52,703 nucleotides of DNA from Anaerolineae bacterium (lineage in GTDB: Bacteria; Chloroflexota; Anaerolineae; Promineifilales; Promineifilaceae). Positions 1,600-39,911 of this stretch are shown here, piece after piece; position 1 is the first letter of the stretch; each line of letters opens with the position of its first letter. Below the pieces are notes generated by a model. That model was not told the origin of the DNA and made no database searches. It was given only the letters and a program-made list of their open reading frames with translations. Location: contig JANTHP010000001.1 in assembly GCA_024762395.1 (NCBI GenBank), positions 1-52,703 on the forward strand, given 5' to 3'. The position numbers and the translations under genes were made by a program.

Positions 1600-2586
1600 A
1601 TGACCTTCATCGTTGTTTTTCTTATCGCCCTTTTTGTCACCGGCATGAGTACGCCCTGGGTGCGGCGCGCGGCCATCTGGTTTGGCTTTGTAGATGCGCC
1701 CGCGCAGCGTAAACTGCACAGCTCGCCCATGCCTCTCATGGGCGGCGTGGCAATTTTTGTCGGCGCAATGTTGGCTGTCTTGCTTTTTGCCAGACAGTTG
1801 CCGCCGCAGGTCACGGCCGTGCTGCTTGCCAGCAGCGTCGTCGCTCTGGTCGGGCTGATTGACGACCGGCGCAATTTACCCGCCTGGGTCAAAATAGCCG
1901 GTCAGTTTGTGGGATTTATTATTTTGGCTTATTGGGGCGTGCGGGTGCGTCTGCCAATTCCTCTGTGGATGAATTACGCCGTTACGTTTGTCTGGTTGGC
2001 AGGCATTAGCAATGCTATTAATTTTTTAGACAATATGGATGGGTTGAGCGCGGGCATCAGCGGCGTGGCGGCGGCATTTATTTTGTTGATGGGGCTGCAG
2101 AATGGGCAGTTTTTGGTGTCGGCATTGGCGGCGGCCGTTTTGGGAGCCTGCCTGGGGTTCCTCCGCTACAATTTCAAACCGGCGCAAATTTTCATGGGGG
2201 ATGCAGGGGCGTTGTTTTTAGGTTTTCTGTTGGCTGTTTTGGGATTGGAGTTGAGTTTCCCTGATAACAGTAATTTTGTTACCTGGATGGTGCCTGTCTT
2301 TATCCTCGGTTTGCCTATTTTTGATACGACGTTGGTCACGATTTCGCGTATTCGGCGCGGCGTTAGCCCCAATACGGCGGGTAAGGACCATACCAGCCAC
2401 CGGTTGGTGGCGATGGGGTTCAGCCAACGGGAAGCGGTGTTGATTTTGTATTTGTTTGCCGGCATGTTTGGGTTGGTTGCCCTGTTTATTTCGGAAGCGA
2501 CGGTGTTAGAGGGGTATGCGATGGGAACGGCCGTTGCCATTGTCGCGCTCTATGCCATTTGGAGACTTATCAAAGTTGAAAAGTAA
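1600..2586 (+). CDS. MraY/WecA-family (GT4) polyprenyl-phosphate N-acetylhexosamine-1-phosphate transferase
   Basis: Polytopic membrane protein with family motifs IDDRRNLPAWVK, NAINFLDNMDGLSAG, FMGDAGALFLGF. The stop codon TAA lies inside the terminus of a MITE-like element. Confidence 0.85.
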   Translation: MTFIVVFLIALFVTGMSTPWVRRAAIWFGFVDAPAQRKLHSSPMPLMGGVAIFVGAMLAVLLFARQLPPQVTAVLLASSVVALVGLIDDRRNLPAWVKIAGQFVGFIILAYWGVRVRLPIPLWMNYAVTFVWLAGISNAINFLDNMDGLSAGISGVAAAFILLMGLQNGQFLVSALAAAVLGACLGFLRYNFKPAQIFMGDAGALFLGFLLAVLGLELSFPDNSNFVTWMVPVFILGLPIFDTTLVTISRIRRGVSPNTAGKDHTSHRLVAMGFSQREAVLILYLFAGMFGLVALFISEATVLEGYAMGTAVAIVALYAIWRLIKVEK

Positions 2587-2799
2587 CTCCGCGTAGTAAA
2601 TACCTGAGTAGTTTGACAATGTTAAGTTAGCCGCCTCTGGTCGCCGCCGAATGGAATTCGACGGCTGATATAAGAAACGCGCTGAAAGCGCGTTCGGAGA
2701 ACATTTCTCAGTACGCTTCAGCGTACTTCTTGTCTCAGCCTGTGAATTCCATTCACAGGCGATTTGAGCGGGTGAATCTAACATCGTCAAAGTAGTTAC
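2583..2799. mobile_element. longer (217-bp) MITE-like element with the same termini
   Basis: GTAACTCC...AGTAGTTAC with flanking duplication GTTGAAAA / GCTGAAAA. Internal hairpins include GCGCTGAAAGCGC, GTACGCTTCAGCGTAC and CCTGTGAATTCCATTCACAGG. Confidence 0.7.
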
Positions 2800-2826
2800 G
2801 CTGAAAATTAACATTTGGAGGAGCAA

Positions 2827-3543
2827 ATGTCCAAGCAAAAAACAGATTTATCGGTATCAAAACGACGTGAAGAAATGAAGCGGCAGCAGGAAGCGAAGCG
2901 GCAGCGCATGTTGATTGGCATTGGTTTGGCAGCGGCCGTCATTATTGTTGGCTATGTGTTATGGCTGGTGTTTGTGAAGGCGAAGGAACCGGCTGTTGTG
3001 GCGGGGGAACGGCCGTTAGCCGCCCTCGCTCCAGCCGCCCGCGCCAACTATTACGATCAATATCCCGACATGGTCATAGACCCGGCCAAAACCTATGAAG
3101 CTGTCATCACTGTCAAAGACAAAGGCGACATGCGCTTCACCCTTTTCCCCGATAAATCTCCGCTCGCCGTCAACAACTTCGTCTTCCTTGCCAACCAGGG
3201 GTATTACGACGGCGTAAAATTCCACCGCGTCATCCAAGATTTTATGGCCCAGAGCGGCGACCCGACCGGGGTGGGCGAAAGCGGCCCTGGGTACACCTTT
3301 GCCGACGAGACGGACAATGGGTTACTCTTTGATAAACGCGGCCTTTTGGCCATGGCCAACGCCGGCCCCAACACTAATGGCAGCCAATTCTTCATTACCT
3401 TTGTGCCTACGCCCTGGCTAGACGGCCGTCATACCATCTTTGGCGAGTTAATCGAAGGCGACGACGTATTAGCCAGTCTCACCACCGACCCCACCGGCCG
3501 AATCGGCGATATTATTGAACGGATTGAAATCGTGGAAAGGTGA
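2827..3543 (+). CDS. membrane-anchored cyclophilin-type peptidyl-prolyl isomerase
   Basis: GGAGGAG lies 4 nt upstream of the ATG at 2827; the track ORF starts at TTG 2815. One N-terminal TM helix, then [44 protein letters not shown]. Paralogous to the C-terminus of ORF 1..1551. Confidence 0.85.
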   Translation: MSKQKTDLSVSKRREEMKRQQEAKRQRMLIGIGLAAAVIIVGYVLWLVFVKAKEPAVVAGERPLAALAPAARANYYDQYPDMVIDPAKTYEAVITVKDKGDMRFTLFPDKSPLAVNNFVFLANQGYYDGVKFHRVIQDFMAQSGDPTGVGESGPGYTFADETDNGLLFDKRGLLAMANAGPNTNGSQFFITFVPTPWLDGRHTIFGELIEGDDVLASLTTDPTGRIGDIIERIEIVER

Positions 3544-3611
3544 GCAGTCGGTTCAAGGAAAACGCCAGGCGCTTACGCGCCAACAGCGACAAAAAGTTGT
3601 CGATCTTTTCG

Positions 3612-3712
3612 AATGGATAATTTATAACGGATAACGAGCAATGGCGAATGAAGGAGTCTTCCGCTGGCGAGAAATTGATAATTATCCGTTATGCGTTATT
3701 CATTATCCATTT
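3612..3712. repeat. inverted period-7 arrays (AATGGAT AATTTAT AACGGAT ... / ATTATCC GTTATGC ...) forming a hairpin
   Basis: Read directly from the spacer between the cyclophilin gene and ORF 3775. Confidence 0.8.
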
Positions 3713-3774
3713 TCTTCGCTTGCCGCATGCGGCTCTCTTGTGCCAGCATCATCTGGCACAAGACGTAGGTTCTT

Positions 3775-4272
3775 ATGAGAAAATTACAAGTGGCGCTGCG
3801 TCAGTTCATATATAAACATGGTATTGCCCAAACAATCACGTTCATCACGGTATTGGCCGTCATCATCTCTGCTTTTTTGACGCTTTCCGTCCTGGTTACC
3901 GTTGGCGTAAGTGACGAGATTGACATGCTGGTAGGATTTGTCATTTCCATTATCGTTCCAATTGTTCTTGCGCCATCATCATTATTCGTTATTTTTAAGC
4001 TGTTAGTTCAAATTGACGAGGCGGAACGAGCGCACGCACAGCTTGTGATTGAGCTGCAAGAAGCGCTGGCCACGGCCAAGACATTAAGCGGGCTGCTGCC
4101 CATTTGCTCTTCCTGCAAGAAAATCCGCGACGATGAAGGTTATTGGCATCAGGTTGAAGTATATGTGCGCGACCATTCAGAGGCGAATTTTAGTCATGGC
4201 ATTTGCCCCGATTGCATGGAGAAAATGCGCGCTGAATTAGCTGAGATGAAGAGCCAGAAGTTGGGGCTGTAG
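3775..4272 (+). CDS. small membrane protein with coiled coil and a C-terminal CxxC...CxxC (zinc-ribbon-like) module
   Basis: Two predicted TM helices, then LPICSSCKKIRDDEGYWHQVEVYVRDHSEANFSHGICPDCMEKM. I recognise this C-terminal motif as recurring at the ends of bacterial signalling proteins. Its function is unknown to me. Confidence 0.6.
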   Translation: MRKLQVALRQFIYKHGIAQTITFITVLAVIISAFLTLSVLVTVGVSDEIDMLVGFVISIIVPIVLAPSSLFVIFKLLVQIDEAERAHAQLVIELQEALATAKTLSGLLPICSSCKKIRDDEGYWHQVEVYVRDHSEANFSHGICPDCMEKMRAELAEMKSQKLGL

Positions 4273-4490
4273 GCGTGGCATTTGAGCAGCCCCGACGCGG
4301 TTAAAATCGCTCTAAGAGGTGCGAGTCCTACGGGTATAGGACTTAAGGGTTTTGCGCTTATAGGACAGATTTCCTACCCGGCGCCATCCATTTCTCTGGA
4401 TTCCTCTAAAAAATCCCCCATAATGATTCCGACATTGCCTCCCTCTTGGCGCTGTTATTCCTCGCCAAGCATAGCCCCAATAGAACCACA

Positions 4491-39134: not shown

Positions 39135-39138
39135 TAAT

Positions 39139-39197
39139 TAACAGTTGACAGCGGATGGTTGATAGTTATCAACTAATCATTGTCAACTATCAACCAA
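39139..39197. repeat. inverted period-7 arrays forming a hairpin in the ffh-rpsP spacer
   Basis: taacagt tgacagc ggatggt tgatagt tatcaac taatcat tgtcaac tatcaac. Confidence 0.75.
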
Positions 39198-39220
39198 AAA
39201 AGTGGAGATTAAAACAAGTT

Positions 39221-39577
39221 ATGCTTCGTATTCGTTTGAGCCGAACTGGAAAGAAGGGGCAACCCAGTTATCGTATTGTTGTGACTGATAAAAGAATGAA
39301 GCGAGACGGCCGTATCGTCGAGCGCATTGGTAATTTTTACCCGCTAACTGAGGCGAATGAATTTAAGATTCAAGAATCGCGGGCTTTGTATTGGCTAAGC
39401 GTGGGCGCGCAGCCTTCGGATGCTGTGCGTCGTTTGCTGGAAAAACAAGGCACATTTGATCGTCTGAAGCGGTTCCATGCCGGCGAGTCTGTCGAAGCGT
39501 TGGTTGCCGAATATGAAGGCGTTGACCTGACGGCCGTAGCTGAGGCCGAAGCGGTCGCCGCTGACGAAGAAGAATAA
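39221..39577 (+). CDS. rpsP: 30S ribosomal protein S16
   Basis: Start taken at ATG 39221 (MLRIRLSRTGKKGQPSYRIVV). The track ORF start at 39155 reads through the repeat array. Confidence 0.92.
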   Translation: MLRIRLSRTGKKGQPSYRIVVTDKRMKRDGRIVERIGNFYPLTEANEFKIQESRALYWLSVGAQPSDAVRRLLEKQGTFDRLKRFHAGESVEALVAEYEGVDLTAVAEAEAVAADEEE

Positions 39578-39582
39578 ATCGG

Positions 39583-39816
39583 ATGAAAGAACTCGTTGAA
39601 TTTATCGTTAAATCCCTGGTGGATAATCCCGATCAGGTGGTTGTGAGCGAGATTGACGGCCATTCTTCAACTATTTATGAATTATCGGTGGCACAGCCGG
39701 ATATGGGGCGTGTCATTGGCAAAGGCGGGCGCGTTATCAACTCGATTCGGGCCATTGTCCAGGTGGCAGCAGCCAAGCAAGGGCAGCGCGTTTCGTTGGA
39801 AATAATTGAAGATTAA
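39583..39816 (+). CDS. KH-domain RNA-binding protein (YlqC/UPF0109 family)
   Basis: 77 aa with GRVIGKGGRVINSIR (GXXG KH motif). It occupies the conserved position between rpsP and rimM. Confidence 0.85.
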   Translation: MKELVEFIVKSLVDNPDQVVVSEIDGHSSTIYELSVAQPDMGRVIGKGGRVINSIRAIVQVAAAKQGQRVSLEIIED

Positions 39817-39818
39817 GG

Positions 39819-39911
39819 GTAACTACTCAGTCTCAGAGGTGACAGTCACTTAAAATGCAGCAAGTTGTGACCAATACCTCTGAGAAAAGTGACTGTCACC
39901 TGAGTAGTCAC
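39819..39911 (+). mobile_element. MITE-like element, subfamily 1
   Basis: GTAACTACTCAG...CACCTGAGTAGTCAC with a perfect 8-bp duplication GATTAAGG on both sides. The left copy contains the KH-gene stop codon. Confidence 0.9.

Follow-up and report, generated by a model that had tools for sequence, protein, structure and literature searches.

We analysed a 52,703-nt stretch of chromosome from an Anaerolineae bacterium of the phylum Chloroflexota (contig JANTHP010000001.1 of assembly GCA_024762395.1, hereafter the window) that carries short repeats with GTAACTA...TAGTTAC ends. The repeats form a family that is itself new but belongs to a well-known kind of element: they are non-coding transposable elements of the miniature inverted-repeat type (MITEs) lying between housekeeping genes; judged by their termini and target-site duplications, they were most likely mobilised in trans by a transposase of the ISBst12 group of IS66, a family of insertion sequences (IS). 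The original prediction, made by a model from the letters alone, had proposed a MITE family with an autonomous partner located elsewhere. That reading stands and the class of the partner can now be named, but a parent element carrying the subterminal motif of the MITE was not found.

Eight loci sharing these termini had been listed. All exist, seven at exactly the coordinates given, while the eighth had been placed one base low (34093-34184) and lies at 34094-34185; a further element at 46971-47030 had been missed. The heptamer GTAACTA, expected 1.6 times in the window, is present 13 times, and 12 of these occurrences fall at the listed loci or at 46971/47030. In total, the window holds six copies of 92-95 nt and four relatives (4491-4607, 2583-2799, 18297-18327 and 46971-47030). 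The copies measure 60-217 nt, with a canonical size of 92-95 nt, and no open reading frame (ORF) fits inside. A profile built from the six short copies recovered exactly those six in the window together with the proposed remnant at 18297-18327 (nhmmer), which is thus real. The members are as follows.

39819-39911, + strand: canonical 93-nt copy of subfamily 1; duplication GATTAAGG on both sides (8/8); between a KH-domain gene, whose stop codon lies inside the duplicated GATTAAGG, and rimM; fold z = -4.4 (+ strand) and -5.3 (- strand).
27641-27733, + strand: canonical 93-nt copy of subfamily 1, 97% identical to the 39819 copy; duplication GGCAATTT on both sides; just 5' of the ribosome-binding site of an arsA-like gene.
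18005-18096, + strand: 92-nt copy of subfamily 1 with one base missing from the left terminus (GAACTG); duplication CAAATAAC on both sides; upstream of a MazE/PIN toxin-antitoxin pair.
34094-34185, + strand: diverged 92-nt copy; duplication CAACAAGC/CAACAAAC; between two histidine-kinase genes.
20088-20180, + strand: 93-nt copy of subfamily 2 with termini GTAAC-ATACAG ... CTTGTATAGTTAC; duplication TTGCGTTT on both sides; between tRNA-Arg and a peptidase S58 gene.
17128-17222, - strand: 95-nt copy of subfamily 2 in the opposite orientation; duplication GCTTTTTG/GCTTTTTA; between ftsH and a PIN gene; fold z = -6.7.
4491-4607, no strand assigned: 117-nt element with 11-nt family termini (GTAACTACTAA ... 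TTAGTAGTTAC) enclosing an unrelated interior that folds strongly (z = -7.1); perfect duplication GAACCACA.
2583-2799, no strand assigned: 217-nt element whose right terminus is good (AGTAGTTAC) and whose left one is poor (GTAACTCCGCGT), with a long internal palindrome; flanks GTTGAAAA/GCTGAAAA.
18297-18327, - strand: 31-nt remnant of an internal deletion, in which the left end's first ~27 nt (terminal repeat plus CCCCAGAGGTGACAG) are fused to a terminal TTAC; nhmmer E = 1.8e-5; no duplication.
46971-47030, no strand assigned: 60-nt element with termini GTAACTATTCAG ... CTGATAGTTAC and an A+T-rich, unrelated interior; no duplication.

Support for the 217-nt locus comes mainly from its right end and its 7/8 flanks, and the element may be a composite. 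A reading of it as an insertion nested into a 33-nt remnant is a tentative one, because the place where the two would join is overlapped by the internal palindrome. A GTAACTG match at 45520 was treated as chance because it lies within a coding region and has no partner end.

We next considered the footprint of insertion. The flanking 8-mers of the eight listed loci read as the original prediction had given them (five identical pairs and three near-matching ones), and we extended the comparison to 26 curated copies drawn from the window and from metagenome-assembled genomes (MAGs) of other Anaerolineae-class Chloroflexota (one genome-collection scan and one metagenome scan). The flanking 8-mers matched at 8/8 positions in 17 copies and at 7/8 in six more (23/26 at ≥7/8), whereas six shifted controls gave 0/156 comparisons at ≥7/8 and a maximum of 5/8. 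Flanking 9-mers and 10-mers did not match; therefore the duplication is exactly 8 bp, as had been proposed, and its match is beyond chance. A blind scan for GTAAC...GTTAC pairs with matching flanking 8-mers likewise returned 12 matches against 0-1 in controls. The duplicated target sites are 69% A+T, and each of the 26 copies is intergenic; such a copy frequently stands within a few bases of a stop codon or just 5' of a ribosome-binding site.

These duplications also bear on a different class of small palindrome. Repetitive extragenic palindromes (REPs) and the bacterial interspersed mosaic elements (BIMEs) that they form, spread by REP-associated tyrosine transposases (RAYTs, IS200/IS605-like), are similarly short, palindromic, intergenic and numerous, and integron attC-like sites could be read in the same way. 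Such sites create no target duplications, however, and because 23/26 copies here carry 8-bp duplications we exclude both readings, giving them practically no chance of being correct. The ends of the family are GTAAC, not the GTAG or CGTC that head REPs and are described as REP tags in one study (PMC3733652); RAYTs are HUH enzymes, and neither a RAYT nor an integrase was present near the copies among the window ORFs examined.

Having delimited the copies, we examined their internal organisation. The canonical layout consists of the left terminal repeat GTAACTACTCAG, a 2-3-nt spacer, CCAGAGG, TGACAGTCACTT and a variable centre of ~28 nt, followed by CCTCTGG, AAA, AAGTGACTGTCA and the right terminal repeat CCTGAGTAGTTAC. 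The terminal inverted repeats (TIRs) are 12 nt long (GTAACTAYWCAG / CTGWRTAGTTAC). Both of the subfamilies that had been proposed were recovered, one with termini ...ACTCAG/CTGAGT... and the other with ...ATACAG/CTGTAT..., and both are present in the window as well as in other MAGs. The internal inverted repeat and hairpin seen in the original prediction also held up, with folds of well-conserved copies surpassing those of shuffled sequence at z-scores of -4.4 to -6.7. The inner sequence can form either of two helices, both of which are kept paired over 22 copies: across these, pairing is 88.7% in the TIRs, 94.8% in the CCAGAGG/CCTCTGG helix and 98.5% in the GTGACAGTCACTT/AAGTGACTGTCAC helix, with a handful of double-sided changes. 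The palindrome GTGACNGTCAC occurs seven times in the window against 0.07 expected, always inside MITE copies.

Such conservation raises the alternative that the element has been domesticated, so that the hairpin or the paired GTGACNGTCAC palindromes now serve the host as a messenger RNA stabiliser or processing site, a protein-binding site or an outward promoter, and transposition is only the origin of the copies. The near invariance of GTGACNGTCAC across copies from different bacterial families and its confinement to copies in the window, the 89-98% paired helices with few double-sided changes, and folds much more stable than shuffles would all fit this idea, as would the position of several copies inside operons directly 5' of ribosome-binding sites. 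Recent amplification from transposition-competent master copies explains the conservation equally well, however, and beyond conservation we found no positive support for a host role. Orientation relative to flanking genes, tested as a sign of RNA-level selection, showed no significant bias (11 sense, 6 antisense), and the positions of copies are not conserved between genomes. A known structured RNA family was ruled out by Rfam scans, of the window at gathering score and of one copy by E-value; the latter returned only spurious microRNA-hairpin matches well below threshold and no family for the element. For an outward promoter, the candidate signal is the pairing of a subterminal GTGACT with a terminal TATAGT 17 nt away in subfamily-2 copies (window 17191-17219 and 17158-17131), which forms a weak outward -35/-10-like pair at both ends (9/12 matches); promoter-like matches in the region numbered 27 against 18.2 +/- 3.8, not clearly above chance. 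Overall, we consider domestication unlikely.

Further copies were recovered from other genomes. The genome-collection scan returned at least 22 matching stretches, with full or partial copies in all 22 by profile search and duplications recurring at independent sites. Among the matches listed, all lie in Anaerolineae-class MAGs labelled Ardenticatenaceae, Ca. Promineifilaceae, Ca. Leptofilum, Caldilineaceae or Anaerolineae, and a single Ardenticatenaceae MAG held at least 10 exact-pattern matches. A distant blastn search of a plasmid collection with one copy gave no match, and the exact terminus pattern had 0 matches on viral contigs. One copy per 6 kb or so, the density given in the original prediction, applies to the window only; about 90 kb from relatives contained one copy. 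Other small elements pair the same termini and an 8-bp duplication with unrelated interiors, namely the window element at 4491-4607, of which no further copy was present among the fetched loci, and elements of 113 nt (L018), 240 nt (L009) and 373 nt (L012) in other loci. This is what would be expected if a single transposase recognises the termini only.

Empty sites were sought at two levels of relatedness. FtsH from the window is identical to that of MAG GCA_024762615.1, whose contigs are 99.3-99.8% identical to the window and represent a second strain. This strain yielded no empty site of the kind suggested for related strains: it carries the same insertions wherever covered: the remnant is there, as are all of the six copies but the one at 27641, a site that is not covered. 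At the family level, the KH-rimM spacer is element-free in about 18 relatives (RimM 61-75% identical), in sequence too diverged for the single GATTAAGG to show. These spacers are consistent with insertion in the lineage of the window, as partial empty-site evidence, and they count against domestication, since position is not conserved.

We then sought the enzyme responsible. As the original prediction had stated, the window encodes no transposase, either among its 30 largest ORFs or by tblastn with an ISBst12-type transposase, and the same tblastn search of all fetched loci found no transposase remnant. GTAA ends together with 8-bp duplications are a combination that we take to be a pointer to the IS66 family. 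For IS66, GTAAGCG ends and 8-bp repeats are described (PMC11946415). Within the ISBst12 group of this family, ISDge4 of Deinococcus geothermalis has a single 449-aa transposase and the termini GTGACTACTCAGCA / GTAACTGCTCAGCA, and it generated an 8-bp direct repeat in an experimentally observed transposition, an observation that for this group is only recent (PMC12898284). An IS66-like element on Geobacillus kaustophilus pHTA426 has the ends GTAACTATTCAGCCC... and ...GGGCTGAATAGATAC with AACTCGTC on both flanks, and its protein matches DDE_Tnp_IS66, zf-IS66 and DUF6444. Homologues of the pHTA426 transposase were found on metagenome, MAG and viral contigs, and their elements are listed below by label.

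P0027: termini GTAACTATTCAGCCCC; duplication ATAAAAAG, with CACCTTTT and AGAAGTTC reconstructed across contigs.
P0113: termini GTTACTGCTCAGGC; no evident duplication.
P0092: termini GTATCTGCTCAGGC / GTTACTACTCAGGC; duplication CTTTTGTT.
P0078: termini GTAACTGCTCAGCC; duplication ACCCTTTC.
P0034: termini GTAACTATTCAGCC / GTAACTATTCAGGC.
P0071: termini GTTACTACTCAGGC / GTAACTACTCAGGC.
P0132: termini GTAACTGCTCAGCT; duplication CTTTGCTG.
Six viral-contig elements (seven loci): GTAACTAYTCAG in most; perfect 8-bp duplications.

A further 8-bp duplication among the autonomous ISBst12-group elements read is CATTTAAT. The terminal repeat of the group is GTAACTAYTCAG(C/G)C, to which the MITE matches at 11-12 of 12 bases. 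The L084 element and the right end of P0071 carry GTAACTACTCAG, identical at 12/12 positions to MITE subfamily 1, and the match to P0027 extends to as many as 16 of 16 bases (GTAACTATTCAGCCCC against GTAACTACTCAGCCCC, differing at one Y position). Duplications at the target site measure exactly 8 bp in the MITEs and in the group alike. This agreement in termini and duplications spans about 19 ISBst12-group elements (ISDge4, pHTA426 and ~17 from metagenomic, MAG and viral contigs). A homologue named 'IS66 family transposase [Anaerolineae bacterium]' in its source (P0216) is 82% identical to P0078, and therefore ISBst12-type elements occur in the bacterial class of the MITE hosts. The two kinds of element differ in that those of the ISBst12 group are 1.47-1.8 kb long and encode one DDE_Tnp_IS66 transposase of 450-520 aa, while the MITEs are 60-217 nt and non-coding; past about 16 nt their sequences are unrelated. 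The subterminal GTGACNGTCAC and CCAGAGG motifs are a feature of the MITE, seen in no autonomous ISBst12-group element read.

Two features of the autonomous elements were observed along the way. The left end of the P0113 element (GTTACTGCTCAGGCACACCAGGAAGTTAATCATTCCCTGGTG) occurs twice in tandem upstream of the transposase gene (L068, L069 and L073), and several ISBst12-type ends have a small hairpin beside the terminal repeat, such as CAGGC-N5-GCCTG in the P0092 and P0071 elements.

The divergence past about 16 nt, where the MITE ends resemble no ISBst12-group element read, and the failure to find the specific parent in the sequences searched leave some room for a genuine MITE whose transposase lies outside the IS66/ISBst12 group and whose terminus resemblance is convergent. 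Some 19 independent ISBst12-group elements, from several phyla, agree with the MITE in 12/12 or 11/12 terminal bases and in exact 8-bp duplications, all of which convergence would have to account for. Furthermore, no other family in the ISfinder table is known to us to pair GTAA ends with 8-bp duplications. We therefore regard a partner from another family as improbable and retain mobilisation by an ISBst12-group transposase as the preferred reading.

Several observations nevertheless weigh against that reading. An autonomous element continuing into the subterminal CCAGAGGTGACAGTCAC of the MITE was not found in the window, in ~300 kb of related loci or on the viral and sampled transposase contigs. 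The contigs of eight homologues (P0027, P0113, P0092, P0078, P0034, P0071, P0132 and P0216) share the 12-nt termini and never the MITE subterminal motif GTGACAGTCAC, and a search of all fetched loci for GTAA...TTAC pairs at most 5 kb apart with matching 8-mers returned small elements only. The Anaerolineae ISBst12-type elements that were found come from genomes of 60-65% G+C without the ACGGCCGT signature of the window (described below), and no MITE lies within 10 kb of them. Neither a precise empty site nor a strain polymorphism was found in the GCA_024762615.1 contigs or the diverged relatives, and two members, 18297-18327 and 46971-47030, have no duplication. Finally, some compensatory changes keep the internal helices paired, which pure recognition by a transposase does not require. 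One could imagine that the paired palindromes (GTGACAGTCAC ... GTGACTGTCAC) and the CCAGAGG/CCTCTGG helix are a host-selected module, either the site of a dimeric regulator or a messenger RNA hairpin controlling operon-internal expression, that the MITE has spread through Anaerolineae, or else the sign of a hairpin or single-strand intermediate in the poorly understood transposition of IS66/ISBst12 elements; we offer this as a long shot.

In the mechanism that we favour, the gene for an ISBst12-group DDE transposase lies at another place in the genome or was once there, and its product would bind both 12-nt TIRs (GTAACTAYTCAG / CTGARTAGTTAC) and move or copy the element. Insertion through cuts staggered by 8 bp would then create the 8-bp direct repeats, and the insertions would survive in A+T-rich intergenic spacers. 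The enzyme would thus act on the MITEs in trans, the invariant subterminal GTGACNGTCAC and CCAGAGG/CCTCTGG motifs are presumably needed for transposition, and a transcribed hairpin may influence neighbouring genes.

To our knowledge, no MITE family described so far has been linked to the ISBst12 group, and a literature search likewise found none. In other respects the family resembles the classical bacterial MITEs, such as Correia of Neisseria, RUP of Streptococcus pneumoniae, MITEPsy1 of Pseudomonas syringae and Nezha of cyanobacteria, which have the same small size, TIRs and target duplications and are likewise non-coding, present in many intergenic copies, transcribed into hairpins and dependent on a transposase in trans. 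Partner families and footprints, however, differ from those of the family here. Correia and RUP have a TA footprint and IS630-type partners. MITEPsy1, the mobility of which has been shown, is IS5-like with a 4-bp footprint (PMC3189936). While the concept of how MITEs work is unchanged, the present family adds a well-documented MITE, tied to the ISBst12 group of IS66, to the Anaerolineae of the Chloroflexota, a phylum known mostly from MAGs whose mobile elements are poorly catalogued. In practical terms, such repeats break assemblies (a Logan contig ends within the 27641 copy), and annotation could mistake copies for ORF starts or small RNAs. As a marker, and as a test substrate for ISBst12-type transposases, the consensus of the family could be of use.

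Apart from the MITEs, the 52.7-kb window is ordinary chromosome, with valS behind a T-box leader, ftsH, ffh-rpsP-KH-rimM, histidine kinases, tRNA-His and tRNA-Arg, in a genome of 53% G+C. The models passing the Rfam gathering score in the window are one T-box and two tRNAs only. Two large ORFs have no Pfam match, one of 468 aa at 40519-41925 (- strand) and one of 649 aa at 44984-46933 (+ strand).

The window is also rich in other repeats. The palindrome AACGGCCGTT occurs at 28 sites against 0.16 expected (for example 1001-1010, 27066-27075, 27087-27096 and 45856-45865), and its core ACGGCCGT is found about 1.9 times per kb, within and between genes. This abundance resembles that of the cyanobacterial HIP1 (GCGATCGC), although the sequence is different and the host belongs to the Chloroflexota. 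Neither L097 nor L104, two Anaerolineae contigs that bear an IS, contains the motif, and a literature search found no paper mentioning it. Two arrays follow one another at 6122-6292, the first of the 8-mer TAGTCAGG and the second of its reverse complement (CGACTACT), making up an inverted repeat with ~60-nt arms; the T-box leader (5864-6097) lies on one side of it and the valS start (6284) on the other. Tandem 8-mer arrays at 19608-19707, (GGGGTTGC)n, and at ~22018-22040, (GAGACTAC)n, have unequal copy numbers in the window and in GCA_024762615.1, with five units fewer at the former and about 38 nt more at the latter; over 14.9 kb, these two arrays and 20 substitutions are the only differences. 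Heptanucleotide tandems, (CGCATCA)n, (TTCACAA)n and variants, at 44488-44547, 49695-49774, 51339-51404, 52140-52199 and 22596-22634 resemble the short tandemly repeated heptamers of filamentous cyanobacteria. Lastly, ATTCCC-N8-GGGAAT-like palindromes occur in the interior of 4491-4607 and at ~2340-2440 of locus L042 (there, for example, GGATTCCCGCCTGTGCGGGAATGAC); reminiscent of dRS3/REP-type repeats, they suggest another small repeat family in these genomes.

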